Assembly: GCA_039936295.1 (NCBI GenBank)
Contig: JBDTIP010000102.1
Location: 1-26,022, forward strand
Length of the DNA stretch: 26,022 nt
From: Gemmatimonadaceae bacterium
GTDB taxonomy: Bacteria; Gemmatimonadota; Gemmatimonadetes; Gemmatimonadales; Gemmatimonadaceae
Reading direction: 5' to 3'
The notes below the pieces were generated by a model. It was given only the letters and a program-made list of their open reading frames with translations. It did not search any database and was not told where the DNA came from. Below are positions 6,169 to 25,789 of this stretch, one piece after another. A program made the translations under genes and the position numbers. Position 1 is the stretch's first letter; every line of letters starts with the position of its first letter.

Positions 6169-6206
6169 ATATTTTCGTTTGTGACGTTACGCTCCCCCGC
6201 CCGCGA

Positions 6207-7940
6207 GTGACAGTGCCCCAGGCAATTCTTCCGCGGCATCACTACGTTCTCGGTTTCACGGCGGCCGTGGCGGTCTGCTACGTCACAATTGCGCTCTTTC
6301 GGCACACCGGACCGATTCAGCGGCTGCGGCGTCTCGGTGGCGATTGGACCGCCGCTCTCGTGCCGCGCCTGCTTGCGATCATCACATTTCTTGCCGGCGC
6401 GCTGCTGCTCTTTTCCGGTGCGACGCCGGCAGTCGCGGGCCGGCTGCAATGGCTGAGCGCGTGGATACCACTACCGATCGTCGAGCTGTCGCACTTCATC
6501 GACAACCTCGCGGGGGTGATGCTGCTCGTTCTGGCTCGGGGCGTTGAGCGGCGTCTCGATGCGGCGTACCATCTCACCATCGGGATGCTCATCGCAGGCA
6601 TTGTCCTATCGGTGCTCCGCGCGCTGGACATTGAGCAAGCCCTCGTGTTGATGCTGATTCTGGCCGCCTTCGTTCCGAGCAGAAAGTACTTCTATCGCAA
6701 GAGCTCCCTGATCGAAGAACGCTTTTCAGCGTCGTGGATCGCCGCGATCCTGCTCGTCGCGCTCGGCTCGATCGCTCTGGGTGTCATCTCGTATGCGAAC
6801 CTGCACATCTCGACCAGGACCTTCTTCCGTTTCGCGACGCACGCCGAAGCCGCGCGATTCCTTCGAGCGAGCGCGGGGGTGCTTGCGGCGCTCATCGTAT
6901 TCGCGGTACTGCGCTTGCTTCGGCCCGCCCGGGCGCCGTTGCTGCGCCCGACCAGAGCCGATCTGGATGATGCGAACCGCATTGTGGCAAACTATCCGCA
7001 GGCCGCAGCACAACTGGCATTTCTGGGTGACAAGTACTTTCTCTTCAATCAGAGCCGCTCGGGCTTCATCATGTTCGGTGTACACGGACGAAGCTGGGTT
7101 GCGCTGGGCGACCCAATCGCTTCACCCAATGAGGCTGCTGAGCTGATCAGAGCGTTCATACAGCTGGCCGATCAGAACGGCGGATGGCCGGTATTCTACA
7201 AGGTCGCACCAACGCTGCTGTACCTGTACCTCGATCACGGCCTTAGCGTCGCCAAGTTGGGCGAGGAAGCGCGCGTCCCGCTCAATGGCTTCTCACTCGA
7301 TGGCTCATCGCGCAGAAACCTGCGTCGCGTCTGGCGCAAGATCGTCGATGACGGCTACACCTTCGAGCTGGTTCAACCTGATTCGATCCCATCGTTGCTT
7401 CCAGAGCTTCGTGCGGTGTCGGATGAATGGATCAAGCAGAAGAAGGCCCGAGAGAAATCCTTCTCGCTGGGAGCGTTCGACGAGGACTATGTATCACGCT
7501 ACGCCGTCGCCATCGCGCGGAAGGACGGCCGCATCGTTGCGTTCTCGAACGCATGGGTTTCCGGTGGCAATGTGGAGGTCGAGGCGGACCTGATGCGCTA
7601 TACTGCGGATGCACCGCCGGGCATCATGAGATTCATACTGATCGAGATGATGTTGTGGGCGCGTGGCGCCGGCTTTGCGCGGTTCAACCTCGGCATGGCT
7701 TCGCTCAGTGGGCTAAGCGTGCACCGTGGCGCGCCGATATGGAACCAACTCGCTGTCGCTCTTCGCGGCTACGGGGAGCGGTATTATAACTTTCAGGGAA
7801 TCCGCGAGTTCAAGCAGTGGTTCTATCCAGAGTGGGAGCCGCTCTTTCTGGTGAGCCCGGGCGGACACGCACGTCCAATCATCATCGCCAACATCGCGTC
7901 GCTCGTCTCGGGCGACCTGCGAGGAGTACTCAAGAAGTAA
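6207..7940 (+). CDS. mprF: MprF-like aminoacyl-phosphatidylglycerol synthase (membrane segment plus DUF2156/LPG synthase C domain), lacking the N-terminal flippase
   Basis: LLLFSGATP..RL, ELSHF..NLAG..LL.LARG..RRL, LAFLGDKYFLF, WVALGDP, KLGEEARV, KEKSFSLG-like REKSFSLG, EADLMRY, FNLGMASLSG, YYNFQGIREFKQWF.PEWEP. At 577 aa it is much shorter than full-length MprF of roughly 840-860 aa. Confidence 0.9.
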   Translation: MTVPQAILPRHHYVLGFTAAVAVCYVTIALFRHTGPIQRLRRLGGDWTAALVPRLLAIITFLAGALLLFSGATPAVAGRLQWLSAWIPLPIVELSHFIDNLAGVMLLVLARGVERRLDAAYHLTIGMLIAGIVLSVLRALDIEQALVLMLILAAFVPSRKYFYRKSSLIEERFSASWIAAILLVALGSIALGVISYANLHISTRTFFRFATHAEAARFLRASAGVLAALIVFAVLRLLRPARAPLLRPTRADLDDANRIVANYPQAAAQLAFLGDKYFLFNQSRSGFIMFGVHGRSWVALGDPIASPNEAAELIRAFIQLADQNGGWPVFYKVAPTLLYLYLDHGLSVAKLGEEARVPLNGFSLDGSSRRNLRRVWRKIVDDGYTFELVQPDSIPSLLPELRAVSDEWIKQKKAREKSFSLGAFDEDYVSRYAVAIARKDGRIVAFSNAWVSGGNVEVEADLMRYTADAPPGIMRFILIEMMLWARGAGFARFNLGMASLSGLSVHRGAPIWNQLAVALRGYGERYYNFQGIREFKQWFYPEWEPLFLVSPGGHARPIIIANIASLVSGDLRGVLKK

Positions 7941-7943
7941 TTG

Positions 7944-9875
7944 ATGCGCACTAGCAAGCTCGCTGTCATCCTCATCGGAGTCGCGGCGGCGATACGTCTC
8001 GTACTTGGCACCGTCATCCCGCTTTTCCCCGACGAAACCTACTACTGGGAGTGGAGCCGGCATCTGGCCGCAGGATACTTCGACCATCCGCCCGCAGTAG
8101 CGCTGCTGATCCGCGCCGGCACGGCAATATTCGGACCCACCGTGCTTGGCGTTCGAATCGGCGCAATCCTGGCGGGCGTGGTAGCGTCGTTGGCGGTCGT
8201 GGTCATCGCGCAACGGCTCAGCAGTGATGACGAGGCGGCGGAAGATGATACATCGGAAAACGCTCTGGACGATCCAGGTGCCCGTGCTGCGTTACTCATG
8301 CTCGTTATTCCAGGCGCTCTGGCCGGATTCATCCTTGCAACGCCTGACGCACCACTGCTGGCGGCAATCGCGCTGACGCTTGCCGCTCTCGAGCGAGCAA
8401 TCGCCTCGCCGCCGCGCAGCCGCGCGTCGCTCGGATGGTGGTGTGCCGCCGGAATCGCGCTCGGACTCGCGTTCTGCTCGAAACTTACGTCAGTGCTTGT
8501 CCCAGCCGGCGTGCTTGTCGCACTCCTGTCGCGGCGCGATTTGCGGATACGTCTCGTAGAACCGGGGCCGTACGTCGCTGTGGCGATCGCGCTACTAGTC
8601 CTCAGTCCAACGCTCGTCTGGAATTCGCGGCACGAGTGGATCTCTTTTGCATTCCAGTTGCACCATGGCCTGGGCGCAACACACGGGTCCGCGCTCGCGC
8701 GCGAACTCTCGCTGATCGGCGGACAGCTGGGGTTGATCTCCCCAATCATCGCCGCCATGGCAGCGATTGCGGTAGCCCGGGCATTGCGCTCGACAACAGA
8801 CCCCCGCCGCTTTCTGCTCGCCGTTGTGGCAACCACAATCGCCGCTGTTTTTGTCGTTAGCGCGATCAGGCGCCCGGTCGAACCGAACTGGCCTGTCCCA
8901 GCGCTGGTCGCTGCCCTTCCACTCCTCGCAACGCTGCGGTTGCATCGCCGCTCGCGATCGTGGCTCGCTGCCGGCGCGGTGCTGGGAGCCGTCTGCGTTG
9001 TCATCCTCGCAGTCCAGGGTGTTTCGGGCATCTTTCGTGTTCCGTCGCGCCGCGATCCGGTGTCGAGAGCATACGGCTGGGACGATCTCGCTAGCACCGT
9101 CGAGCATGCGCAACTGTCTGCACGACAGTGCTCAGCCGTCTGGCTCGCGGCGGACCGGTACCAGGACGCTTCCGAGCTTGCGTTCCATTTGCCAAGCAAT
9201 CCACGTGTCTTTGCACTCAATCTTGGCGGCCGGCCCAACCAGTACGACATGTGGAGCAGTATTTACTCACTGGCCGCGCCGTCGGACTGCGCGCTCGTAG
9301 TCGTCGATGAAGGACCCGCTGGTCAGCACGTCGTTCAGCGATTGGGCGCAGCGAGCATGGTGCTCGTCAGCGATGCAGTAATGACCTGGCGCGGGATTCC
9401 TGTCGGACGACGCGCTATCTGGCTGGTCCGCGGAATACCATCGGCGCCGCCTCTTCAGGTAGAGCTCTCGCCGATCGCCAAAGCTGCACTCGCAGCAGCG
9501 ACGACCAATTTCCCACCACATCTCGCGCTACTCGACTCGATAGTGTCGATCTATCGCAGTGGTCCAGTTCCGAACGTGGTCACAACAATCACCACCGCGC
9601 CTCTCTTTAACTCCGACCGGCAGGCGTCGATCAACGCAAAGCTCCATGTACTGCAGCCGTTGTTGCAGCGCGCAGGCTTCAAGGCGGTGTATCGCGACGC
9701 ACGTTACCGCGACTGTACCTTTGTGCGTTCCACCGAGCCCGACAGCACCGACATCGGCTACGTGTACGCGCCAGATGGCTGCAAGCTCGCGGGTGGAATT
9801 GGCGACCGCCTGCTCCAGACCGATCATGCATCCGGTCCGTGGTACTCGTACGCATCGCCGGAGCGACGCGACTAG
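7944..9875 (+). CDS. GT39/ArnT-PMT-like (GT-C fold) integral membrane glycosyltransferase with an extra C-terminal domain
   Basis: DETYYWEWSRHLAAGYFDHPP, TPDAPL, GLAFCSKLT, P.LVWN.RHEWISF.FQ, YQDASELAF, RPNQYDMW and many TM segments. It starts right after the mprF stop (TAA TTG ATG); start 7941 is the alternative. Confidence 0.88.
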   Translation: MRTSKLAVILIGVAAAIRLVLGTVIPLFPDETYYWEWSRHLAAGYFDHPPAVALLIRAGTAIFGPTVLGVRIGAILAGVVASLAVVVIAQRLSSDDEAAEDDTSENALDDPGARAALLMLVIPGALAGFILATPDAPLLAAIALTLAALERAIASPPRSRASLGWWCAAGIALGLAFCSKLTSVLVPAGVLVALLSRRDLRIRLVEPGPYVAVAIALLVLSPTLVWNSRHEWISFAFQLHHGLGATHGSALARELSLIGGQLGLISPIIAAMAAIAVARALRSTTDPRRFLLAVVATTIAAVFVVSAIRRPVEPNWPVPALVAALPLLATLRLHRRSRSWLAAGAVLGAVCVVILAVQGVSGIFRVPSRRDPVSRAYGWDDLASTVEHAQLSARQCSAVWLAADRYQDASELAFHLPSNPRVFALNLGGRPNQYDMWSSIYSLAAPSDCALVVVDEGPAGQHVVQRLGAASMVLVSDAVMTWRGIPVGRRAIWLVRGIPSAPPLQVELSPIAKAALAAATTNFPPHLALLDSIVSIYRSGPVPNVVTTITTAPLFNSDRQASINAKLHVLQPLLQRAGFKAVYRDARYRDCTFVRSTEPDSTDIGYVYAPDGCKLAGGIGDRLLQTDHASGPWYSYASPERRD

Positions 9876-12577: not shown

Positions 12578-12588
12578 GGAGCACGTTG

Positions 12589-12594
12589 TAGCTT
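12589..12594 (+). promoter_or_regulatory. Candidate -10 element (TAGCTT) 7 nt before the mscS ATG
   Basis: TANNNT hexamer at leaderless-type spacing from ATG 12602. Confidence 0.3.
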
Positions 12595-12601
12595 TAAGGC
12601 C

Positions 12602-13543
12602 ATGCCAATCCCGCCCCTGGCCAAACAGCTCGCTCGACGGACCGGCCTTCTCTTTCTGATCTTTCTGGCCGCGTGGCTCGTCCCGCAGTTCATCGATTTT
12701 CCGGGGCGATACGCATCCCGCATCGACGTCACCCTCTACTACCTCGCGATTGTTACGCTGTTTCTCCAGGTTGGAATCTGGTGCAACGTCGCTATCAACT
12801 ATTGGTCGCACTCCTACATCCAGCGACACAACCGCGATCGCGCCGACGCCACGACAATTCAGGCGCTATCGGTTCTCATCAAGGTTGTGTTCTGGGTATT
12901 GCTTGCGACCCTCACGATCGAGGAAGGCTTCAAACAGAGTGTAACGGCACTAATCGCGACGCTCGGCGTCGGCGGCATCGCTGTCGCGTTCGCACTCCAG
13001 AATGTCCTGAGCGATCTTTTCGCGGCAATGGCAATCGTAACGGATAAGCCATTCGTCATCGGCGACGCTATCCAGGTCGATGCATTCTCTGGCAAGGTCG
13101 AACACATCGGCCTGAAATCAACGCGTGTGCGGTCAGATACCGGCGAGCAGATTGTCTTCGGGAATAGCGACCTGCTCAAGGGACGCATACGGAATTTCGG
13201 GCGCATGGAGGAGCGCCAGGCCGTCCTCACGACACGCGTATCAGGAAGCACGGAGCCCGATAAGCTTGCCCGCATCCCCGCACTCATTCGTGAGGTCGTG
13301 GAGAGCATTCCCAACACCCGGTTCGTCAGATCAGCAATGACCGCAGTTGGCGATTCGACCATCGACTTCACGACGATCTATTATCTCACCGATCCGGCAT
13401 ACCAAGTGTACGTCGACGCCCAGCAGGCGGTGATGCTCGAGCTGATGCGCCGGCTCAAGGCCGAAGGGACGCGACTGGGAGTGCAGCTCGAGGCCGCCGT
13501 GAGAGAGAAGGCCGGCGGAATGTTCGCGCAGCCACCAGCCTGA
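12602..13543 (+). CDS. mscS: Small-conductance mechanosensitive channel family protein
   Basis: ALIATLGVGGIAVAFALQNVLSDLFA, DKPFVIGD.I, GKVEHIGLKSTRVRS.TGEQIVFGNSDL. Confidence 0.93.
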   Translation: MPIPPLAKQLARRTGLLFLIFLAAWLVPQFIDFPGRYASRIDVTLYYLAIVTLFLQVGIWCNVAINYWSHSYIQRHNRDRADATTIQALSVLIKVVFWVLLATLTIEEGFKQSVTALIATLGVGGIAVAFALQNVLSDLFAAMAIVTDKPFVIGDAIQVDAFSGKVEHIGLKSTRVRSDTGEQIVFGNSDLLKGRIRNFGRMEERQAVLTTRVSGSTEPDKLARIPALIREVVESIPNTRFVRSAMTAVGDSTIDFTTIYYLTDPAYQVYVDAQQAVMLELMRRLKAEGTRLGVQLEAAVREKAGGMFAQPPA

Positions 13544-14022: not shown

Positions 14023-15294
14023 CTACTTGCCCTCGCCTATTCCGCTTTTGGAGACAAGTTGCGCCGCAAGTACGGTCTGAATCACGCTGGTAATGTTGTT
14101 CGTCGCACCATCAGCTGCGCTGGTGCCGTCGCTCGATATGTTGATCAGCTTGGCCGCGGCAAGTGCGCTCGCTATCACCGGCGCTATCTGCGGCAACAGC
14201 TCGATCTGGCGATACCGGAAGTAACTCTCGCCACCAGCCTGGATCGCCGCATTCACCTTCGCGATACTCTCGGCATTTGCACTTGCAACGCGCGTGATCC
14301 TTATCGCCTCAGCGTCCGCCGCGGCTTCGGCTTCGATTTTCACGCGCTCCGCGTCGGCACGCGCCTGTGCGATCTGCGTCGCCTCGAGCTCCGACGTGCG
14401 CTGCACGGCGAGCGCGTCCTGCTTCAATGCCTCAGCCTTCGCGATCAACGCAGCGTTGGATGCCTTTGTCTGTTCCAGTTCGCGCTGCTTGTCGGATATT
14501 GCGCGCTCAGCATCGAGCTGCGCCTCCTTCGCGCGCCGTGCTTGCTGCGCGGACACGATGTCCGCATTGGCCTGTGCCTCAGCGGCAGACTGCCGGCGGC
14601 GTGCGTCCGCCACTTCCGACTGCACCACCTTGATGTTGAGCGAATTGAAACCGAGGCCGAGATCGGTGAGCTCGCGGGAACACGCCTTGCGAATGATCAC
14701 GGCAAGCGGGTCATCATCATCGTCCACCACCTGCACCGCCGAAATCGTGTTCAGCTGGGACAAGGCCGGTGCCGTCAGCGCCGTAACCGCCAAATCTTGC
14801 GGCGTGGCTACGGGAAGCGCGCGCGGCACCGTCTTGGCCGAGAATAGCTGATCGTGCGTGAGGAGATTGATCGCACGGCGCCCAGAGCTCGAAAGCAGAT
14901 CGGTTATCGTGCTCATCTGATCCGGCTCAGGCTTTGCGAAGAACCTGTTCGCCGCCGTCTTGATCATCGCATCCGTCTCGCCGACAGAAACGATCGCGCT
15001 CGCAAGCACCCGAACCTTGATCGGCTGCGGGTGGCCGTTCTCATCCACATCCGCCGTCTGATCGGTGATGTCCAGATCGACATTGATCACTTTGCTCGAC
15101 AGCGTGGTTCCCGTTGTCAGCAGGGGAATCTCCTTCGATTTCCCCGGGCCGCGATATATCACCGTCCCCCCGCCTGTCCAGCTCACGAGCCTGATCGTGC
15201 CAGCTTCGACATTCCGAAGAAACGATGCTACGATCGTCGGGATGAGAATCAATACGATGAAGATGACGCCGACAATCAACAGCAGAGATTCCAT
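14023..15294 (-). CDS. SPFH/flotillin-family membrane scaffold protein (FloT/YqiK-like)
   Basis: N-terminal TM, SPFH-like domain (GTIRLVS, VINVDLDI, ELTDLGLGFNSLNIK) and a long EA/AQA-rich coiled coil. Confidence 0.88.
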   Translation of the reverse strand: MESLLLIVGVIFIVLILIPTIVASFLRNVEAGTIRLVSWTGGGTVIYRGPGKSKEIPLLTTGTTLSSKVINVDLDITDQTADVDENGHPQPIKVRVLASAIVSVGETDAMIKTAANRFFAKPEPDQMSTITDLLSSSGRRAINLLTHDQLFSAKTVPRALPVATPQDLAVTALTAPALSQLNTISAVQVVDDDDDPLAVIIRKACSRELTDLGLGFNSLNIKVVQSEVADARRRQSAAEAQANADIVSAQQARRAKEAQLDAERAISDKQRELEQTKASNAALIAKAEALKQDALAVQRTSELEATQIAQARADAERVKIEAEAAADAEAIRITRVASANAESIAKVNAAIQAGGESYFRYRQIELLPQIAPVIASALAAAKLINISSDGTSAADGATNNITSVIQTVLAAQLVSKSGIGEGK

Positions 15295-15368: not shown

Positions 15369-16037
15369 TCACGAATCGATACCGTGTTGTACAAACGAAA
15401 CGGTGCATCTGCTTCGCCTAGCGTCCACGTCTTCCACCCGAAGCACATCACCGGCCCGTACGCGCACACCTAGAGCCATGTCGTCCGAACGAAGTGTTCC
15501 GAGGCACTGCACTATCTGACCATCGACTTCGACCGCAACGAGGCCCTGTCCATTGTTGTCAAATCCGCTCGTGGCGCGAGCCTCGCTCATCAGACTGCCT
15601 TCGAGCGTAGCGGCCGGATTCGATGCGAATCGAAAGAGCGAACGCCACAACGGCGCCACAAGCGCCCACTCGAAAATGATGCCACCCGCGGCGGCGGCAA
15701 TGAGCAATAAGATACCCGACAGAAACGATCGCGCGACCACCCCTGTCAGTCCAAAACCCACCAGAAAGCTGAACAGGACGCGGGGCGACGCGAGCGAGAG
15801 AAGCGCCGACCTGATACCGCCAGCTGTTGAGTGGCCGGCGGAGTGATGCCCGCCTAGATGGGTTGCTACACGCGCATCGCCACTATGACTCGCACCGGTA
15901 TGAGACACCGAATGCGCTCCACCAGCATGGGCGCCGCCTGCTCCTCCATCGTGCGATCCCGAATGCGCCAGACCGGTGGCCGCCATCGCGACCAAGCCGC
16001 CGCCGCCAAGGACGAGCGCGAATGTGTAGGAATCCAT
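15369..16037 (-). CDS. NfeD-like/YuaF-YqiJ-type flotillin partner with His/Gly-rich loop
   Basis: TM segments, FL.GFG..G motif, C-terminal OB-fold-like region (GQGLVAVEVDGQIVQC...GDVLRVEDVD), directly upstream of the flotillin gene. Confidence 0.8.
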   Translation of the reverse strand: MDSYTFALVLGGGGLVAMAATGLAHSGSHDGGAGGAHAGGAHSVSHTGASHSGDARVATHLGGHHSAGHSTAGGIRSALLSLASPRVLFSFLVGFGLTGVVARSFLSGILLLIAAAAGGIIFEWALVAPLWRSLFRFASNPAATLEGSLMSEARATSGFDNNGQGLVAVEVDGQIVQCLGTLRSDDMALGVRVRAGDVLRVEDVDARRSRCTVSFVQHGIDS

Positions 16038-16160: not shown

Positions 16161-16661
16161 TTACACCGCTACGGGCAACAGCGCTCGGTGCCAGGCGTCG
16201 GACGCGCGCACCTCGAAGCTCTTGCGCCACTCTCCAACGGTTTGCGCACTTAGATCGAACACGTGTGTATCCGGACCGATAGATCCATCCTGCGCAAGGC
16301 ACGCGAATCCTGCACGATCCGTGACCGAGACAGTTTCGTCCGGCAGCCTGAAGTAAACCAGCGAAGAGCTCAGCAGCGACAGTCCAACGCGGGATTCCAC
16401 ATCGCGCAATACACGGAACAACGCATCAAGCGAGCAGCCCGACGCATTCGTGTCGCGCTGGTCAACGGCTATGGCCAGGAACCGATCATCACGCCATTCT
16501 CGGCCGACGGTCAGTGGTGAGCCGTGCGCGCGCCAACCGGAGAGATAGTCGTCAACTGCGTTGAGAAGAAGGTCCTGGTTGGCCCGATCAAGCGCGCGCG
16601 AGCTGCCAAAAATCCAGACGCGTGCGTCATCCGGAAGGGACGAAAAAACAACAAGGGGCAT
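16161..16661 (-). CDS. Conserved hypothetical protein with W-x-AHG and ASGCSxD motifs (family often mislabelled 'ABC transporter ATPase')
   Basis: F.SLPDDARVWIF, YLSGWRAHGSPL, NASGCSLDALF and HVFDL motifs, recognised from memory of this family. No Walker motifs. Confidence 0.75.
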   Translation of the reverse strand: MPLVVFSSLPDDARVWIFGSSRALDRANQDLLLNAVDDYLSGWRAHGSPLTVGREWRDDRFLAIAVDQRDTNASGCSLDALFRVLRDVESRVGLSLLSSSLVYFRLPDETVSVTDRAGFACLAQDGSIGPDTHVFDLSAQTVGEWRKSFEVRASDAWHRALLPVAV

Positions 16662-16713: not shown

Positions 16714-17478
16714 CTACACGCCGCTTGCGGCCATGGGCTGCGCTGCGGCCGATCCCGCGTGAACCGGTGATGCCGCCTCGCCCTGTGCCGCCCGATTGCG
16801 TATGGCATCCTGGAACGCCGCCAGCTCGATCACCATCGCTGCGCGCAGGTGTTCGATGTCTTCCGCAGAACCATCGCCCTTCCAAAGCTTGTCAATCTGC
16901 TGGACGGTTCGAATTGCCCCCACGTTCAACGCCGCCCCACGAGCGCGCGTGACGATTGAGTTGAGTAGCGGTATTTCTGGCGGCGACACCTGCCCCTGAG
17001 CAAGCGCATCATCCAGTTCATGCAGCACCTGGTGCGCTATCGCGAGCATAGGCTGAATGGTACGGCTGTAGAAACGCAGACGCTTGCTCATTTCGCGCCA
17101 CGACTCCCAACGCACCGGCGACCTTTCCATCGCGCGATTGATGCGCCCAGCAAAAGACTGAATCGCGATAGGCTTCTTCACGAAATCGATCGCGCCGAAG
17201 CCAAGTGCAGCTTCCACCGTTTCGATATCCGCCTGCGCCGTACAGCACAGCACCGGGATGTCGCGCAGATACGGGAGACTGTACTTCTCTTTCAGAAGGT
17301 CCAGCCCGTTCATGTCTGGCAGCATCATATCGGCGATGACCATGTCGATCGGCTGCGTTCGGAGCTGGTGAAGCGCCTCGGCGCCCGTGTGCGCCTCACA
17401 GTATGCGTAACGCATCCGCTTGAGTAGCGCGGAGATGATGTGACATGTGACGAGGTCGTCTTCGATGATCTGGATCAT
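16714..17478 (-). CDS. Response regulator: intact receiver domain plus C-terminal Hpt-like domain lacking the phospho-His
   Basis: REC motifs IIEDD, ADMMLPDMNG, CTAQ and VKKP. The C-terminal IVTRARGAALNVGA aligns to the Hpt consensus H-x-L-K-G-x-x-x-N-x-G-A with Thr at the His position (codon 16948-16950). Confidence 0.85.
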   Translation of the reverse strand: MIQIIEDDLVTCHIISALLKRMRYAYCEAHTGAEALHQLRTQPIDMVIADMMLPDMNGLDLLKEKYSLPYLRDIPVLCCTAQADIETVEAALGFGAIDFVKKPIAIQSFAGRINRAMERSPVRWESWREMSKRLRFYSRTIQPMLAIAHQVLHELDDALAQGQVSPPEIPLLNSIVTRARGAALNVGAIRTVQQIDKLWKGDGSAEDIEHLRAAMVIELAAFQDAIRNRAAQGEAASPVHAGSAAAQPMAASGV

Positions 17479-17485
17479 AAGCCAA

Positions 17486-17512
17486 TTATCGGCCGTTCAA
17501 TAAGGGACTGTA
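17486..17512 (-). promoter_or_regulatory. sigma28 (FliA) promoter, leaderless spacing
   Basis: TACAGTCC-N11-GCCGATAA versus consensus TAAAGTTT-N11-GCCGATAA: perfect -10 and canonical spacing. ATG 17478 follows 7 nt later. Confidence 0.75.
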
Positions 17513-17553
17513 GGCTAAAAAACATACAATTGCGGGCGAGGCAGATCAGTATG

Positions 17554-19923
17554 TCAAGCGGCGACAGCGTGACTCGGAAAGGCTGTCTCAAGAACTTCAC
17601 GGACGTGCGCGAATTCTCTCTCGGCATCGTCGATGAGCGATCTGGCCCCTTCGACGTCGTGCTTCTCACCAGCGCCCTGCAGAGCGGCGCCGATGGCGGC
17701 CATCGCTGTAGCACCCATGTTGCCGCTACTACCCTTCAGCGCGTGTCCGGTCCGTTCAACGAGTGGCAAATCACCTGCATCGAGCGCCACATGCAGGGTA
17801 ACGATTCTGGACGATGTGTCCGATATATACGTTCCGATCAGCCGCGATACGAAGTCGTCGCCGCTATCGGTCATGGCGGCCAGGTTATCGAGCACTGACA
17901 GGTCGACCGAGGACTGGGTTGCGTGGGGCCCATCGTCGGTCTGAAACTGTGCGGCCAGCGCCGCTACTAGCGCGGGGTCGACAGCGAACGAAGTCGCCGC
18001 CGATTGCGCAGACGTCGCGGCGCCCACATCGGGCCTCGGCGCGATAAACGTGAAATCCTGTGCGTTCGGGGTCGGCGGTTCGGCTCCCGGCTTGGCGTCG
18101 GCGGGAATCCAGCATTCCATAGCCGTTTCAAGTTCTTCGAGCGCGATTGGCTTCGGAATGAACCCGTCCATCCCTGCGTCGAGACAGCGCGCCCGATCCT
18201 CCCGCATGGCGTTCGCGGTCATTGCAATGATCGGTGTGTGCCGGCTCCCCGAATTCTCTCGCTCGCGAATCGCGCGCGTAGCAGAATATCCGTCAAGCTC
18301 CGGCATCTGGCAGTCCATCAGGACGAGATCATACGGAAGCTGTGCGAGCATCTCGACGGCTTCGAGGCCGTTGGAGGCGATGTCGCAACGATAGCCGAGT
18401 TTGTTGAGCATGTGAGATGCAACACGCTGGTTCACCGGATTATCCTCAGCGACCAGTACACGCGCACGTGCCTTTTCGGCTGGGCCGCCAACTGGCTTCT
18501 CGGCTGCGTGCCTCCCGCGTGGTACCAGATCTGGCCGAAGAAGCGAACCAATCACGCCGAGAAGCCTCGTGGGGCGTATCGGAAGCGCAAACGTTGCATC
18601 GATTCCCGCCTGCCGCGCAGTCTCGGCATTAGGTTTTTGTCGGGCAGGCGCGAGCGCGATCACGCTGGAGATGGCGTCACCGACTTCGCGGCGCAAGTCG
18701 CGGATTGCGCGAAGTGGATCGCGTGCAATCGCGGTAAGGTCGACCAGCATCACGTCGTAGCGCTGGCCAGATGCAAGACGTCTCTTGATCAGTGCGCGCG
18801 CCTCCGCAAGCGTACGTGCGCCATCTGCCGTAGCGCCCCAATCTCGCGCGTAGCGCCTTAGAACAATACGTGTGAGTTTTCCAGCAACAAGCACGAGCAC
18901 GCGCGTATTCTTCATCGCAGCTACGGCGGGCGCCTTCAACAGTCGCGGCCCGGGTTGCGCAGCTATCGTGAATTGAAACACGCTCCCCTCGCCGGGCACG
19001 CTAGCGACGTCAATGTCACCGCCGAGGAGGCTCACTAGATGCTTCGAGATGGCCAAGCCGAGCCCCGTACCCCCGTACTTCCGGGTCGTAGAGCTGTCTG
19101 CCTGCTGGAACGGTTGAAAGAGTCGTGAGCGAGCTTCTGAAGTGAGACCAATGCCGGTGTCATTCACATTGAAGCGAAGCTGCACTGCCGCGTCTGTCTC
19201 GGCATCGACAGTGACGTGCACGTAAACGCGCCCCGCAGGCGTAAACTTTATTGCGTTGCCGACGAGGTTGAGGAGAATCTGTCGTACGCGACCCTGGTCT
19301 GTGCGAACGATTGACGGAACGCGCTCGTCAACGTAGCAACCGAGTTCCAGGTTCTTCTGCATCGCCTGCTCGGCAAGCAGCTCAACGACTTCCTCGACCG
19401 TCGTGCGGACGTTGCAGTCAATGATCTCGATCTCCAGCTTGCCAGCTTCGATCTTGGAGAAATCGAGAATTTCGTTGATAATCGTGAGTAGCGCCTCTCC
19501 GGACGACCTCACGGTTCCGACGTATTCACGCTGTTCTTGATCCAGCACGGTATCGAGCAAGAGACCCGTCATGCCGAGTATACCATTCATCGGAGTGCGA
19601 ATTTCATGCGACATGCGCGCGAGAAACTCGCTCTTGGCCTGATTGCCCTGCTCGGCTTTTTCCATCGCCTCTGCCAGCTCGAGAGTGCGCTCGCGAACCT
19701 TATGATCCAACCCGGACAGAATCTGCTGCATCTCGCGCATCAGCGCCTCACGTTCGGTGAGTGCACCGCGAATGCTCTGGTTATTCTGGCGTGAATCCGC
19801 TCTCGTCACCGCGGTCGCAGCAGCGCTAACGAGCTTGAGAGTGCGGACACGCCGCGCGAGCGCTATGACGAGAATGGCCTCGATTGCGATGCCGAGGCCA
19901 AGAACCAGTACGGAGGCGTGCAC
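17554..19923 (-). CDS. Hybrid (unorthodox) histidine kinase: single TM-HisKA-HATPase-pseudoREC-REC-Hpt, with no sensor domain
   Basis: H box [15 protein letters not shown] box [11 protein letters not shown] boxes DTGIG and GGTGLGL. The first REC is degenerate; the second is intact ([24 protein letters not shown]). The Hpt has [13 protein letters not shown]. Confidence 0.93.
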
Positions 19924-19944
19924 GGCGTGGTTGCCTGACCGGCG

Positions 19945-20622
19945 CTAGTGCGCGACGCTGGCGGAATGATCGCCCCAAAACACTGCGTCGGCGGTGGCCT
20001 GCCGCTCGAACGAGTTCTGCGTGGACGCTGATTCACTGAATGTCGGGACCTGGTTGCTGGCGATAATCGCAGCGTCCGCGGTGCCGCCGGAGAGGAGCGA
20101 AGAGATCGCCTGCAACCTGCTCTCGATATCTCGAAGCATCTGCGCTACATGCCCGAGCTGCTGCGAAGTGATGTCCTGAAACTGCAGCGAGCTCATGACC
20201 GCGAAGAGCTCGTCGCGGATTTTCGTACGCACCACGCCGGCTTCGATTGCTACATCACCAGGATTGCCCAGCGGCTCCAGCTCGTCCAGACGATCGACGA
20301 GCGCGTGAGCGCGCTCAAGCCCGTCCATCATGCGAGTCGCGGCAAGTTCTGTGGCCGTCGACACCTCACCGAGCTTCGTAGCACTGTCATGAATTTCCTG
20401 CAGTGTTACCCCCTGAAGCGCTTCGCGACTTGTGTGGAGTGTGCAGAGTATCTGTGCGATTTCGCTCGTTGCGCGTTGCATGACGGCGAGAAGGACGCCC
20501 ACGTTGTTTCCGCGCAGCCCAGCCTCGCGCGCATCGTCACGAAGCTCATCGAGCTCGCTGTCTACGAGGCGCAGCATCGTCTCTGAGTCGTAAAGAACTT
20601 CGGCGATGCGGGAATTGGGCAT
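19945..20622 (-). CDS. cheZ: CheZ-like phosphatase
   Basis: Helical protein with TELAATRMMDGLE and the catalytic signature LQFQDITSQQL (DxxxQ), directly downstream of cheY. Confidence 0.8.
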   Translation of the reverse strand: MPNSRIAEVLYDSETMLRLVDSELDELRDDAREAGLRGNNVGVLLAVMQRATSEIAQILCTLHTSREALQGVTLQEIHDSATKLGEVSTATELAATRMMDGLERAHALVDRLDELEPLGNPGDVAIEAGVVRTKIRDELFAVMSSLQFQDITSQQLGHVAQMLRDIESRLQAISSLLSGGTADAAIIASNQVPTFSESASTQNSFERQATADAVFWGDHSASVAH

Positions 20623-20631
20623 GGTAGTCTG

Positions 20632-21000
20632 TTATGCGGCTCTGGTCGCCAGCACCGCGTCGATCTTCTCGCGCAGCACCTGCGGAGTGAATGGCTTGAC
20701 GACATAGCTGTCAACGCCGGCTTCCATGGCGGTGAGTATGTCGTCGCGAACACTTCGCGCCGTTACCATGATGAGCGGCATTCCCTTCGTCTCATCACAC
20801 GAGCGTATTGCCCGGGTGAGTTCCGCGCCGCTGACCTTGGGCATGTTCCAGTCAGTGATGACGAAATCCACGGAAGCGATCTTTTCGAGGGCTTCCGCGC
20901 CGTCGCTTGCTTCCACCACGTCGCTAAAACCGACGCGCTGGAGTGAATTGACAACGATTCGTCGCATTGTGGCCGAATCGTCAACGACTAGAAAGCGCAT
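20632..21000 (-). CDS. cheY: Chemotaxis response regulator CheY
   Basis: Single-domain REC: LVVDDSATMRRIV, VITDWNMP, MVTA, SYVVKPFT. Located next to cheZ and flgM. Confidence 0.93.
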   Translation of the reverse strand: MRFLVVDDSATMRRIVVNSLQRVGFSDVVEASDGAEALEKIASVDFVITDWNMPKVSGAELTRAIRSCDETKGMPLIMVTARSVRDDILTAMEAGVDSYVVKPFTPQVLREKIDAVLATRAA

Positions 21001-21030
21001 GTGCTTGGCTCCAGAAAGGCTGCAATACTC

Positions 21031-21330
21031 TTACAGATCGCCGCTGCGAATTACAGCACGCGCGACCTGGTCTGCCGATTCAAGCGAGTTGTAGGCTCCC
21101 GCAAGAATCTTCGAACGGATCTGGTCAGCGCGGCTCGGGTCGAGCGTCGATCTCGTCTGCTGCGTCTCGCCGCCTGACGCGAGAGCGAGACCGGCATCGG
21201 AGATCTGAACCGCATCGGTTCCACGAGCTGGCGCGACGGCATCAACGGGTGCCTGGGGCGCAGCCGATCCCTGAGCGCGCTGTAGCGCGTCTGTTGGGAT
21301 CATGTCGGCTGCGGTCTTGTTTACGTGCAT
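21031..21330 (-). CDS. flgM: Anti-sigma28 factor FlgM
   Basis: 99 aa with D.VQIS..G.AL and RADQIRSKILAGAY motifs, a GGAGG RBS and flagellar context. Confidence 0.85.
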   Translation of the reverse strand: MHVNKTAADMIPTDALQRAQGSAAPQAPVDAVAPARGTDAVQISDAGLALASGGETQQTRSTLDPSRADQIRSKILAGAYNSLESADQVARAVIRSGDL

Positions 21331-21351
21331 GTCGTTCCTCCTTCCGTTCTA

Positions 21352-21379
21352 ATGTCGGTTTATGGGGGCCGTTACTTTA
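21352..21379 (-). promoter_or_regulatory. Candidate sigma28 promoter for flgM-cheY-cheZ-kinase
   Basis: TAAAGTAA-N12-ACCGACAT, with the spacer one base longer than the enteric consensus. It lies 21 nt before the flgM ATG. Confidence 0.55.
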
Positions 21380-22199: not shown

Positions 22200-22667
22200 C
22201 TAACCGCGGCGATCCAGAAAGCGTTGGGAATCGGTGCGATAAGCGGGCGGGAGAGCCGCCTGAGAGCCCGAAGGATGCGTTCCGCGCAACTCTCGGCCCA
22301 TCGCATCGCGCTGTTCTCTGCACGCGGTAGCGAGGTGCGAGGCTGAACCGTCCAGCGTCTCGGCGCGCGACCGCGATGCAAAACTGCGTCGCTTGATCTC
22401 GGCCGCACGCGGGCCAGCAAACTGCTCTGATGCGATTGCGCTGACGAGTGGCGTGAAGCGCTTGCCGCATATTGCAGCGTCGCGCGCGAGTTTGTCTCCG
22501 CGTGATGCCATCTCGAACAACCCCGCAAAGTTCGCCGTCTGAATGTGAACTTGCTGCGTGTCGAGCAGCATTTCGTACTGCGACACCAGCGCGTCGAACT
22601 CGTCCAGGGCCTGCAGCGCCTTGGTGTGGGCTGGAACCGGGACGTCCGCGACGACAAACGTCTTCAC
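22200..22667 (-). CDS. Putative FlgN/FliT-like flagellar export chaperone
   Basis: GTG overlaps the fliD stop (GTGA). Helical pattern L...Y..LL..Q...I...N...L and C-terminal AY.....FLDRRG resemble the ends of FlgN/FliT proteins. The family assignment is inference. Confidence 0.5.
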   Translation of the reverse strand: MKTFVVADVPVPAHTKALQALDEFDALVSQYEMLLDTQQVHIQTANFAGLFEMASRGDKLARDAAICGKRFTPLVSAIASEQFAGPRAAEIKRRSFASRSRAETLDGSASHLATACREQRDAMGRELRGTHPSGSQAALPPAYRTDSQRFLDRRG

Positions 22668-25600
22668 GCGCCGCTCCCACTTGTGACACTACGCGAGGGG
22701 CTGCTGGATGAGCTGTTTTGGTTCGTGGCACCGTTGAGATTTGAGAACGCCGCCAGAAAGGAATTGCCCTGCGCAAGAATTTGCGAGACAGTGCTGTCCA
22801 TCGCCGAGTACTGCGCTAGCAGCGCGGTCCGCTGGAGCGCGATTCGCGAATTGAAGTTGGCGAGCCACGTCTGCTGATTAGTGATCGTGTCGCTCATCTG
22901 CTGCGTCTGCATCGAGATCGTACCGCCGGTCTGCGTCCAGCCGTTGAGCAACTGATCGACGACCGACCCGAAACCTTGGGTAAGCGACAGCGTTCCCGCC
23001 GCACCGGTCGAAGTGCCCAGATACGCCATGCTCAGGCCGTCGACAGGTGTGCCTGTAGCGCCAACCAGCTGTCGCCCAGACCCCGTTGCCGCGAATCCCC
23101 CGATGGTTCCCTGTACGTCGGTACCGTGAAAGCTTCCTGCGGATATGCCGAGTTGAGCGGCGGGGTTACCGGATCCTGAATAGGAGATCGAAAACCCTGG
23201 TCCAGATCCAAACGCATTATCCTGAATCTGGATCTGATTGCCAACTGCAGTGGCGTTGAGCGAAAGAAGCCCATGCCCGGCGGCAGTAACGTTCATTGCA
23301 CCAAGATTGAGCGAGCCACCACCTTCGTTATGTGCTGTGAGCGACAATGTGAGCGGCGAGGCACCGGCGGTATTCGCCTGAACGGCGATCTGCCCGTTGA
23401 CGAACGAAACGGTGGCCCCGCTCCCCACAGCAGTCTGCAGCTGAGTGACGAGATTGGTGATCGTGGATGAGGCACCCACGGTCACGGAACCCGTGAATGG
23501 GGTGCCGCTCGTTCCGGTCCCGCTGAAGCTGATCGTATCGCCAACCGCTACGCCGGATGAAGCGCCGCCAGAGGCATGGAGATCCGTGAGGAGCGTTGAT
23601 GGGGTGGCCTGCGTCGTTCCGCTGGCGTCCATCAGTGTCGCGGACGATTGCAGCGCTCGCGCTTGTGCCGCCCCGAAGGTTGTGGACAGCGCCGCGACTA
23701 TCTGCGCGGTCGTCATGCCTCCGCCCAGCTGGATCTGTGCGCTGGCGCTGGACCCCAGGTCGGTCACGGTCATCGCATCAGCAGCGCCCGGCTGGCTGTA
23801 AACGCCACTGAATCCAGTACCCGTCGCTGCAGCTTGCGATGCGGCCTGGGTAATGTTCACGGCGTAACTTCCCGGCTGGGTCGCGGACGATGCCGCCGTA
23901 AAAACGACTGACGAATCGCTAGCAGTGCCGGACTCCATGAACAGCTTGGTCAGGTCGCTGTAGCGTGTGTTGAACGCTGTCTGGAACTTGCTGCTGTCGA
24001 AGCTAAGATCGCCAGTTGCTGTAAGCGAGATGCCGGCTGTGTCTGGTGTCGCAAGGTCGGATGCCGCACCTGATACTGGCGACAGCATTGCCGAGGACAG
24101 CGCGCTACGAGCGTTTCGAAGCAGCGGGTCGTTGAAAAGAGTCGGGTTGCTGGTGGCGTCGACGCCCGGCGTCTGCTGCGTCTTGATGTAATCGGCGACT
24201 GCGTTGTACGCAGTTACGTAGTTCTGCACCGCAGTCTGAGCTGCGCCTGAATCCAGCGCAACGTTTACCGTAGCGGTCACATTTGGATCGGCCGAAGTCA
24301 ACGTGAGCGTGGTGTTCGCGATGACATCTGAGACGCTGTTGCTCGAACGCGTAAAGGACACACCATCGACCGAAAACTTGGCATCCGAGCCCTGAACAAG
24401 CTCGCGCGCGCGTCCGGTCTCAGCGGTTGTGAATGCACCAAAGTCAAGCCGTCCGCCGCCCTGATTATTCGCGACCATCTGCAGCGATAGGCCGCTCTGG
24501 CCCGCCGTGACGTCGCTCAGTACGATGTGGCCGCCCGCGTCGACCGACGCGGTGGCCGGGCGTGCTCCAGCACCGAAACCAGTGGTTGCGTCGTCCAGCT
24601 TGTTCAGCAGATCCTGCACTGTGCTACCCGAACCGACTGTATATGATACGGTCACGGCGGATCCGTCGCCGCGCGTTCCGGAAATACTGAGCGTATCGCC
24701 AACCTGCGTACCTGAGGCTGCTCCGCCATTCCAAAGATTAGTGAGGAGCGTCGATGCGGTCGCAGCCGTGCTGGCGTTTCCGTCCGTCATTGCGGAGCTC
24801 TGCAGTTGCTGAGCGACCGACGAACGGCCCGCAGCCAGGATCCCCAGCTGCTGAAGCGTGTTGCCGCTGTCGACGAAGCTGGTGGTATTGCGAACGTCGA
24901 GAAAATACTGAGTCGCGCCGTTGACAGTGGTGCTCTGAACCGTTGCCTGTATCCCCGGTAGTGCCGACAGTGACGCCGCGATAGAAGTGAGCGAATCGGT
25001 CGCAAGATTGATCGTGACGTTGTGGCCGCCGATCGAGACAGTCTGCGCACCTGGCGCTATGGTAAGCCCGAGCTGTGATCCGATACTGGCGGTGGCTGAC
25101 GCAAAATCGTCACTCTGGCCGCCCCCGCTGGTCGGATGCTTGAGCGACTCTGTCGAATCGACCCAGCCAAGTTGCCGCGCGGCGCCCTGTGCGCCATCGA
25201 CGAGGTTGATCCCGGCGGAGCCAGTCTGAGAGCTCGTGAGTACAATGCGTTGCGACGCGGATGAATCGTTGACGACCGACGCGACGACTCCGCTGGCATT
25301 GCTGCCAGAGTTTAGGGCATTGATCTTGTTCGCGACAGATGTGAGCGTGTCTGAGGCCGCGATCGTGACGGTACGGCCATTGATTACAAAGTCACCCGAG
25401 ATACCTAGCGGAGCGGCACCGCCGGCGAAGGAGCTGCCGGAGAGTTTTTCCGCCTGCGCTGTCTGAAGCACCTGCACCGCGTATGTGCCGGCAGACGCGC
25501 CGCTGAGGGCAGATGCGGACACCACCGGCTGTCCGTTGGTACCTGTTGCATTTGTCACGCTTGCAGTCACGGCCTGCAACGCGGTTCCGTCGCGCATCGT

Positions 25601-25789
25601 TGCGGTAGTCGCTTCGAGCGTCGAGAGGAGACTGCTGTAATGCTGATACTCGGTGACTTGCGACTGCTCGGTGCCGATCTTGGTCTGCATCGCCGTACCT
25701 GGCTGCGATGCGATGGTGATCAGCGAGTTCACCAGCGACGTATAGTCGAACGAGCTCCCGATGCCGGGAAACGATCCTACTGCTGTCAT
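22664..25789 (-). CDS. fliD: Flagellar filament cap protein FliD, greatly enlarged (1041 aa)
   Basis: FliD_N (G.GS.FDY..LV..L...ASQP), GTY.V.V.Q.AQA, Flagellin_IN-like I.IAASDTL..VA.KINA, FliD_C (DAKFSVDGV...RSSN.V.DVI...TLTL, YV.AYNA), C-terminal L..Q.SAMD..V. Lies between fliC and fliS. Confidence 0.93.
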   Translation of the reverse strand: MTAVGSFPGIGSSFDYTSLVNSLITIASQPGTAMQTKIGTEQSQVTEYQHYSSLLSTLEATTATMRDGTALQAVTASVTNATGTNGQPVVSASALSGASAGTYAVQVLQTAQAEKLSGSSFAGGAAPLGISGDFVINGRTVTIAASDTLTSVANKINALNSGSNASGVVASVVNDSSASQRIVLTSSQTGSAGINLVDGAQGAARQLGWVDSTESLKHPTSGGGQSDDFASATASIGSQLGLTIAPGAQTVSIGGHNVTINLATDSLTSIAASLSALPGIQATVQSTTVNGATQYFLDVRNTTSFVDSGNTLQQLGILAAGRSSVAQQLQSSAMTDGNASTAATASTLLTNLWNGGAASGTQVGDTLSISGTRGDGSAVTVSYTVGSGSTVQDLLNKLDDATTGFGAGARPATASVDAGGHIVLSDVTAGQSGLSLQMVANNQGGGRLDFGAFTTAETGRARELVQGSDAKFSVDGVSFTRSSNSVSDVIANTTLTLTSADPNVTATVNVALDSGAAQTAVQNYVTAYNAVADYIKTQQTPGVDATSNPTLFNDPLLRNARSALSSAMLSPVSGAASDLATPDTAGISLTATGDLSFDSSKFQTAFNTRYSDLTKLFMESGTASDSSVVFTAASSATQPGSYAVNITQAASQAAATGTGFSGVYSQPGAADAMTVTDLGSSASAQIQLGGGMTTAQIVAALSTTFGAAQARALQSSATLMDASGTTQATPSTLLTDLHASGGASSGVAVGDTISFSGTGTSGTPFTGSVTVGASSTITNLVTQLQTAVGSGATVSFVNGQIAVQANTAGASPLTLSLTAHNEGGGSLNLGAMNVTAAGHGLLSLNATAVGNQIQIQDNAFGSGPGFSISYSGSGNPAAQLGISAGSFHGTDVQGTIGGFAATGSGRQLVGATGTPVDGLSMAYLGTSTGAAGTLSLTQGFGSVVDQLLNGWTQTGGTISMQTQQMSDTITNQQTWLANFNSRIALQRTALLAQYSAMDSTVSQILAQGNSFLAAFSNLNGATNQNSSSSSPSRSVTSGSGA

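Follow-up and report, generated by a model that had tools for sequence, protein, structure and literature searches.

A late flagellar locus of Gemmatimonadales was analysed on a single contig (C102) of a metagenome-assembled genome (MAG) from soil; the window, i.e. the whole stretch of DNA that was analysed, is this entire 26-kb contig (26,022 nt), and the assembly comprises 1.97 Mb in 263 contigs and is 67% complete. In this locus cheY and cheZ are followed by the genes of a 789-aa hybrid histidine kinase and of a 254-aa response regulator (REC254), in which a receiver domain (REC) is joined to a C-terminal domain that resembles a histidine phosphotransfer (Hpt) domain without the phospho-accepting His (REC/pseudo-Hpt). 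On balance, the sequence comparisons favour the view that these four genes form one late-flagellar signalling cassette, which would operate alongside a conventional CheA system, with the kinase relaying phosphate to REC/pseudo-Hpt and this protein modulating CheY or CheA signalling. A preliminary description of the window had proposed that the kinase and the regulator stand in the place of cheA. The features that are needed for the argument are as follows:

21352..21379, minus strand: putative sigma28-type promoter-like site upstream of flgM, TAAAGTAA-N12-ACCGACAT, read from the sequence
21031..21330, minus strand: flgM-like gene, 99 aa, probable anti-sigma28 factor (TIGR03824 23.3 bits, cut-off 40.75; Pfam FlgM 14.7 bits, cut-off 25; both under the cut-off)
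20632..21000, minus strand: cheY, 122 aa, motor response regulator (Response_reg 93.9 bits)
19945..20622, minus strand: cheZ, 225 aa, phosphatase of phosphorylated CheY (CheY-P) (Pfam CheZ PF04344 34.3 bits, above the cut-off of 30.7)
17554..19923, minus strand: hybrid histidine kinase, 789 aa (HisKA 78 bits, HATPase_c 99, Response_reg 118, Hpt 38, all above the Pfam cut-off)
19441..19638, minus strand: HisKA domain of the kinase
18961..19299, minus strand: HATPase domain of the kinase
about 18535..18906, minus strand: pseudo-receiver of the kinase
18118..18459, minus strand: REC domain of the kinase
17605..17841, minus strand: Hpt domain of the kinase
17486..17512, minus strand: putative sigma28-type promoter-like site of the REC/pseudo-Hpt gene, TACAGTCC-N11-GCCGATAA, which ends 7 nt before the ATG, with no Shine-Dalgarno sequence
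16714..17478, minus strand: response regulator REC254, 254 aa (Response_reg 79 bits)
17149..17475, minus strand: intact REC domain of the regulator (E6, D7, D8, D50, T80, K102)
16786..17055, minus strand: four-helix, His-less, Hpt-like C-terminal domain (C-domain) of the regulator
16161..16661, minus strand: orf166, conserved gene bounding the cassette (no Pfam or NCBIfam match)

Conservation of the cassette

The order of genes on the minus strand is fliD (1041 aa), two unknown open reading frames (ORFs), fliS, flgM-like, cheY, cheZ, the kinase gene, the regulator gene, orf166, orf222, orf423 and sufE. From flgM onwards, successive genes are separated in the sequence by 30 nt (flgM-cheY), 9 nt (cheY-cheZ), 21 nt (cheZ-kinase) and 75 nt (kinase-regulator), and the first three gaps, like the shared orientation of the genes from flgM to the kinase, agree with the preliminary description. 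The order fliD..flgM-cheY-cheZ-kinase-REC..sufE was kept in all ten loci of the same genus that were inspected and in two metagenomic relatives, and a related arrangement was present in the sister genus, so that the recurrence in relatives to which the preliminary description had looked was borne out. A cheZ gene was found in 19 of the 21 other genomes of the genus that were searched (the genus-wide counts take in the unpublished genomes G007 and G017; no conclusion rests on either).

Two species of the genus, G004 (96% complete) and G011 (98% complete), possess FliM, fliD, fliS, flgM and orf166, and orf166 directly follows flgM (loci L100, G004:C1:741000-760900, and L101, G011:C16:7000-26900). 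Orthologues of cheY, cheZ and REC254 were found in neither of the two genomes, whose locus also lacks the kinase gene. This joint absence, together with the position of orf166, indicates that the genes from cheY to REC254 are one insertion/deletion block. The CheA and the MCP (methyl-accepting chemotaxis protein) type of the flagellar CheA system of the genus (system A, see below) were likewise not found in the two species, and G011 gave no CheA match at all, suggesting that this species may have flagella without chemotaxis. The cassette travels with system A, which supports a functional link of the kinase and regulator to CheY and CheZ, and of all four to CheA.

Both promoter-like sites claimed in the preliminary description were recovered. 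The sigma28-like motif before flgM is conserved as TAAAGT...CCGATAT/GCCGATAT in relatives within the genus and in Gemmatirosa-like loci. The near-consensus motif before the REC gene has a -10 element, GCCGATAA/GCCGATAC, which together with its spacing to the ATG is kept in 10 loci of the genus, and the orthologue in L081, a locus of the sister genus, is preceded by TAAACGTC-N11-GCCGATAC. The consensus of sigma28 (FliA) promoters is similar to TAAAGTTT-N11-GCCGATAA; measured against it, the site of the REC gene agrees in 8 of 8 positions of the -10 element and 5 of 8 of the -35 element, and the flgM site of the window has a weaker -10 element.

All residues of the acidic pocket and the switch are present in CheY (D7, D8, D50 within a DWNMP motif, T80, Y99 and K102). 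Its top NCBIfam model was CheY PRK10610, with 123 bits, under the equivalog cut-off of 189. Identity is 95-98% across most of the genus; with the CheY proteins linked to cheA in other Gemmatimonadaceae it is 61-70%, and the assignment is supported because CheY is orthologous to these proteins of related Gemmatimonadaceae at the same locus. CheZ contains the motif QFQDITSQQ, in which D150 and Q154 stand at i and i+4, the spacing of the catalytic pair, and which we take to correspond to D143 and Q147 of E. coli CheZ. The C-terminus of CheZ (..DAVFWGDH..) is conserved within the genus, sufficiently for use as a search pattern. The probable assignment of the flgM-like gene is supported by the position after fliS, the sigma28-type promoter-like site and the FlgM matches of the positional homologues in L081, L083, L084 and L103.

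Two loci showed irregular gene calls. In L029 (G012:C3:2764500-2779500, from a three-contig assembly) the kinase, sufE and orf166 were each split into several tblastn pieces, which are probably indel errors of long-read assembly and not real pseudogenes. In L103 (ena:ERZ27252315), at 6008-8933, the gene after cheY encodes 145 aa without a CheZ match and overlaps an 848-aa kinase call, which may be a frameshift or a cheZ-kinase fusion.

CheA systems accompanying the cassette

No match to CheA (PF02895), CheW (PF01584) or MCP (PF00015) was obtained on the window contig, as the preliminary description had stated. No che genes besides cheY and cheZ were found in the 26-kb window, and its other large ORFs are unrelated housekeeping genes. 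The 789-aa gene was also considered as cheA itself, as in Pseudomonas-type cheY-cheZ-cheA loci, and this was ruled out, as the protein has no P3 (PF02895) or P5 (PF01584) domain. That cheA is missing from 26 kb says little about the whole genome. On contig C127 of the same MAG a cheW-cheY-cheA string was found, and on C174 the P5 domain of CheA, cheC/X, a DUF4388-TPR gene, cheR and the start of cheB. The ends of these contigs overlap, since the 42 C-terminal residues of the CheA fragment on C127 match C174 4048..3923 at 100%, and together they represent one cluster, cheW-cheY-cheA-cheC/X-DUF4388/TPR-cheR-cheB (system B). The absence of cheA and cheW noted for the window did not extend to the genome; no MCP was found in this 67%-complete assembly.

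Most near-complete genomes of the genus that bear the cassette encode two CheA and two MCP. In the relatives, system A consists of cheA (Hpt-P3-HATPase-P5), cheW, a cytoplasmic GAF-GAF-MCP, cheB and cheR, with no cheY in the cluster. In five of these relatives (G015, G016, G018, G020 and G012) the cluster shares a contig with cheYZ, at a distance of 64-85 kb. The MCP type of this system (671-680 aa, with GAF) was found in 17 of the 20 genomes with the cassette, and the three without it, the MAG of the window included, are 67-90% complete. In a maximum-likelihood tree of CheA, system A grouped with the cheYZ-linked CheAs of other Gemmatimonadaceae and one CheA of G039, a genome from another family of the order, with support of 100/100. 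System B grouped with the single CheA of members of the order in which no FliM was found, and for this reason is probably a non-flagellar chemosensory system. The CheA of system A, a cluster without a CheY of its own, is most likely the natural kinase for the flagellar CheY. CheA P1 domains aligned poorly, and that alignment was set aside.

An HDOD-domain gene was observed in divergent orientation beside the cheY-less cheA cluster (L066, G015:C3:449000-468900, at 12583-13473), and an HDOD gene is also present in a che cluster of G039 (L110), between the che genes and the hybrid kinases. Che systems of this type may repeatedly be partnered by such a gene.

Elsewhere in the Gemmatimonadaceae, 14 related loci have cheA-cheW-cheR-cheB directly after cheZ. 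In the sister genus an orthologue of REC/pseudo-Hpt (about 55% identical) is located between cheZ and cheA, with a kinase gene before it. The complete genome G307 of this genus has the order flgM-cheY-cheZ-kinase-REC249/pseudo-Hpt-cheA-MCP-cheW-cheR-cheD, and its kinase is a soluble hybrid of 488 aa with the domains HisKA-HATPase-REC-Hpt. In L081, L083 and L084 (one of them labelled Gemmatirosa sp.) the kinase is a HisKA-HATPase core of only 227-238 aa, followed by the REC245/pseudo-Hpt gene and cheA. Five related loci were inspected outside the genus. In four, a kinase gene downstream of cheZ is immediately followed by the REC/pseudo-Hpt gene; the remaining one, L104, is a contig of 2x coverage in which no cheZ or kinase gene was called. 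In all loci inspected with gene context, the REC/pseudo-Hpt gene is situated in the flagellar che locus, downstream of cheY.

The hybrid kinase of G307 has its own Hpt domain beside cheA, and the Hpt domain therefore does not replace the P1 domain of a missing CheA; of the arguments against such a stand-in, this coexistence appears to be the strongest. The terms "instead of cheA", "CheA-independent" and "receptor-array-free" of the preliminary description are not supported: the genome of the window has a CheA cluster, relatives carry the cassette together with the cheY-less cheA-cheW-MCP-cheB-cheR cluster, in five cases on the same contig, and the sister genus has cheA beside the kinase and regulator genes.

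The kinase, its partner and the predicted relay

The 789-aa protein has the HisKA-HATPase_c-REC-Hpt order of an unorthodox hybrid histidine kinase, in accordance with the architecture given in the preliminary description. The catalytic residues H106 (HisKA), D537, T569 and K591 (REC) and H727 (Hpt) are all present and were invariant in 8 orthologues. Its N-terminus consists of one hydrophobic transmembrane (TM) helix followed by about 70 residues of coiled-coil-like sequence; no significant Pfam family and no sensory domain were detected in residues 1-100. The pseudo-receiver between HATPase and REC scored 19.7 bits, under the cut-off, and is without the acidic pocket. The nearest named NCBIfam models were BarA (448 bits, cut-off 890) and TorS (435 bits, cut-off 676).

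The AlphaFold2 model of the regulator had a predicted local distance difference test score (pLDDT) of 84 for the whole protein. A fold search with the full-length model returned receiver domains, and the C-domain was therefore folded and searched alone; it was predicted to be a four-helix bundle (pLDDT 89), for which 6 of the top 8 PDB rows in Foldseek were Hpt proteins (E 0.05-0.25), with HptB (7c1i) at rank 11 (E 0.29, TMq 0.71). The profile of the C-domain weakly matched AHP2 and ShpA. In the hidden Markov model alignment to AHP2, RGAALNVGA of the regulator lies opposite KGSSSSVGA, which places T177 in the phospho-His column. Across the regulator family this column holds T, L, V, S, K, R, E or A, and His in no member, in agreement with the term REC/pseudo-Hpt of the preliminary description. 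Because the column is never His, the C-domain is a pseudo-Hpt at best, and on the alignments and the model together it is best described as a His-less Hpt-like domain whose homology to Hpt is not proven.

The family is tiny: a profile search gave 23 clusters among 1.84 billion representative proteins, and in a sample of 301 Gemmatimonadota genomes it occurred in 2 of 127 genera. In the divergent members P0100, P0102, P0103 and P0109 the phospho-Asp of the receiver is replaced by Ser, Ala or Glu, while the LPD motif, the P-x-RWE linker and the R-x-R..VGA-x-R motif are retained; these may be doubly "pseudo" proteins. Their contigs are too short for gene context, as are those of the most divergent members (P0096, P0098 and P0102), which measure 1-1.6 kb.

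The gene order, domains, residues, motifs, joint distribution and coexistence with cheA were observed. In the scheme proposed here, all transfers of phosphate are inferred from them, as are the input of the kinase and the protein to which the pseudo-Hpt domain binds. The CheA of system A would phosphorylate CheY, and CheZ would reset it. The membrane-anchored kinase, for whose input the TM helix, the pseudo-receiver and a partner protein are candidates, would autophosphorylate on H106 and relay via D537 and H727 to D50 of REC254. Phosphorylation of REC254 would alter the exposure of its His-less Hpt-like bundle, and the bundle, as a non-transferring mimic of Hpt or P1, would dock either on CheA or on a receiver, most likely that of CheY and otherwise that of CheB, so that the level of CheY-P and the switching of the motor would shift independently of the receptor array. 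REC/pseudo-Hpt is the most likely phospho-acceptor because it is the constant genomic partner of the kinase, whatever the length of the kinase; phosphate would reach it directly from a core-only kinase and via REC and Hpt in the hybrid forms. In the most specific version of this scheme REC/pseudo-Hpt is a phosphorylation-gated decoy of CheA P1, the released bundle of which docks on CheY or on the CheA core and sets the motor bias without receptors; this version is offered tentatively and must be regarded as doubtful.

Several results weigh against the relay to REC/pseudo-Hpt and its modulation of CheY or CheA. The kinase gene belongs to the cheY-cheZ string, 21 nt after cheZ, and REC254 has its own putative promoter, an arrangement that by the logic of operons might link the kinase just as well to CheY. 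The scores behind the Hpt character of the C-domain are weak: the Hpt proteins at the top of the Foldseek search (rice, maize, Medicago, AHP2) had E values of 0.05-0.5, a VIA structure alignment gave Z of about 10, level with unrelated four-helix bundles, Pfam Hpt reached E 0.0024 in only 3 of 25 family members, and hhalign of the C-domain with the Hpt domain of the kinase gave E 0.34 as a single sequence and 0.086 as a profile, with the right motif aligned and homology unproven. Neither the system A cluster nor any MCP was found in the MAG of the window, which at 67% completeness is uninformative. As to the kinase, the 230-aa kinase of L083 matched the window kinase best (106 vs 93 bits), but in the reverse test the window kinase matched other hybrid kinases better in G307 and G039; orthology of the kinases across genera therefore rests on position and architecture only, and the kinase may have been replaced by another hybrid kinase between genera.

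The reading that competes most directly has H727 of the kinase Hpt domain giving phosphate straight to CheY, as a second, receptor-independent input parallel to CheA, with CheZ as the common reset and REC254 as a competing acceptor or decoy. The co-oriented string behind the flgM promoter, with the kinase 21 nt after cheZ, and the joint absence of all four genes in two species would be expected from it, and HisKA-type kinases follow cheYZ in three lineages of Gemmatimonadales. The third of these is G039, in which C54 (L031) has the order cheY-cheZ-kinase(HisKA-HATPase-REC)-kinase(PAS..REC); here CheY is the only separate regulator. Both kinases are without Hpt, and the cheZ-adjacent one is not a best match of the window kinase. 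Relatives of the window kinase with 40-44% identity lie elsewhere in that genome (L110, G039:C14:27000-42000), within a cheR-cheX-cheY-cheB cluster that continues with a REC gene (203 aa), an ORF, the HDOD gene and two hybrid kinases (GAF..Hpt and CHASE4..Hpt), and classical hybrid kinases wired into che loci seem, from these arrangements, to recur in Gemmatimonadales. The Hpt domain of ArcB, moreover, reportedly transfers phosphate to CheY in vitro. Direct transfer to CheY is nevertheless unlikely: in G307 a kinase with the same domains, among them Hpt, is encoded in one string with cheA, in L081, L083 and L084 the kinases have no Hpt and yet cheY, cheZ and REC245 are unchanged, and it is REC/pseudo-Hpt that invariably adjoins the kinase. 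The stricter form implied by the preliminary description, in which CheY is served by the hybrid kinase only and the switch is CheA-independent, with no adaptation and no receptor array, is extremely improbable. It would account for a window with cheY and cheZ as its only che genes and for a MAG in which the cheY-less CheA cluster and any MCP were not found, but this MAG is 67% complete in 263 contigs, it encodes CheA, CheW, CheR, CheB and CheC/X, the GAF-MCP type is present in 17 of 20 genomes of the genus with the cassette (the three exceptions being 67-90% complete), and the sister genus has cheA beside the kinase.

It is also conceivable, and rather improbable, that the kinase and REC/pseudo-Hpt control late flagellar expression or another property of the motor (FlgM/sigma28, stator, brake or clutch) and not CheY-P, in a manner similar to the HptB-HsbR-HsbA-FlgM route of Pseudomonas aeruginosa. 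The position of the pair beside flgM and fliS among the late flagellar genes and the putative sigma28-type promoter of the REC gene would fit a feedback loop of the regulon, and an output domain without a DNA-binding or enzymatic fold must act by protein binding. In the sister genus, however, the pair is situated between cheZ and cheA within the che string, and G004 and G011 lack it together with cheY and cheZ but keep flgM, fliS, fliD and FliM; the pair therefore tracks the chemotaxis genes and not those of flagellar assembly. An ordinary two-component pair that came to lie beside cheYZ by chance, with no role in motility, is very improbable. Hybrid kinases are numerous, with dozens of matches per genome, and the closest sequence relatives of the window kinase in other genera are at other loci; against chance stand the position kept in two genera, the presence or absence of the four genes as one block, the sigma28-type promoter of the REC gene and the constant placement of the REC/pseudo-Hpt gene in the flagellar che locus downstream of cheY wherever context was inspected.

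Relation to known systems and flanking genes

Bacterial chemotaxis serves as the reference model for signal transduction, and few cases are known of extra signals that enter the CheA-CheY-motor line outside the receptor array. The locus described here offers a compact and conserved cassette, in which a classical phosphorelay and a fusion of a receiver with a His-less Hpt-like domain are found at a flagellar cheYZ locus, and a natural series of kinases (core-only, soluble hybrid, and membrane-anchored hybrid with a pseudo-receiver). If the pseudo-Hpt domain is indeed a P1 mimic, this would be a new regulatory principle for bacterial two-component systems, and a P1 decoy would be a previously undescribed way of injecting a second signal into flagellar chemotaxis. 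The cassette is less surprising than CheA-free control of the motor would have been.

The window kinase resembles the unorthodox kinases BarA, ArcB and TorS in its HisKA-HATPase-REC-Hpt order and in the predicted His-Asp-His-Asp relay to an adjacent, separate regulator. Unlike these kinases it lacks periplasmic, PAS and HAMP input regions, its N-terminus being limited to a single TM helix with a coiled coil, and it carries an extra pseudo-receiver between HATPase and REC; its scores with their models are far under the cut-offs. The partner regulator also differs in having a His-less Hpt-like bundle and no DNA-binding domain, and the kinase gene in lying inside a flagellar che locus.

Compared with canonical cheY-cheZ-cheA loci, flgM-cheY-cheZ are likewise part of a late flagellar locus, with the DWNMP motif in CheY and the D/Q motif in CheZ, but in this genus the slot after cheZ holds the kinase and REC/pseudo-Hpt, and cheA is 64-85 kb away in the five relatives with both on one contig; the sister genus has the pair as an insertion that separates cheZ from cheA. 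In the HptB-HsbR-HsbA-FlgM system of Pseudomonas aeruginosa, which affects motility, a non-DNA-binding regulator encoded near flgM receives its signal from hybrid kinases by way of an Hpt step. The present locus is similar in that a hybrid kinase, an Hpt domain and a non-DNA-binding regulator are encoded near flgM, but it has no PP2C, STAS or anti-sigma-antagonist domains and its pair tracks cheY and cheZ, not flgM.

Plant pseudo-Hpt proteins of the AHP6 type have the Hpt fold without the phospho-accepting His, and are thought to compete for receivers and not to relay. The regulator is similar in its predicted Hpt-like bundle, which lacks this His. The plant proteins, however, are stand-alone and eukaryotic, whereas the bundle described here is joined to a receiver that seems functional, is encoded in the flagellar che locus of a bacterium and is only weakly similar to Hpt in sequence. 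Pseudo-Hpt proteins are mentioned as a class in PMC10267837.

A non-CheA kinase encoded within a che cluster alongside CheA is also known from the Che3 system of Rhodospirillum centenum, where CheS3 reportedly exchanges phosphate with receivers of the pathway alongside CheA3 (PMC3868531). Che3 differs in that it controls cyst development and not flagella, in that CheS3 is a hybrid of REC and kinase which lacks Hpt, and in that the system is not known to include a REC/pseudo-Hpt protein or CheZ, both of which the window locus has. Extra kinases in che clusters and pseudo-Hpt proteins are thus known. In the open-access full texts searched, no description was found of a che system of Gemmatimonadota, of a REC/pseudo-Hpt che regulator or of such a CheA-independent CheY kinase, nor of a fusion of a receiver with a His-less Hpt-like domain that has a sigma28-type promoter in a cheYZ locus.

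Downstream of the cassette, orf166 is followed by ORFs of 222 aa (15369-16037) and 423 aa (14023-15294), also on the minus strand; all three are conserved and have no Pfam or NCBIfam match. As orf166 adjoins flgM in the species without the cassette, it may be a gene of the flagellar locus. At the other end, FliD (22664-25789, minus strand) has 1041 aa, against 1038-1040 aa in the relatives L102 and L103 of the genus and 453-481 aa in the Gemmatirosa-like loci L081, L084 and L104, and its enlargement is therefore specific to this genus.

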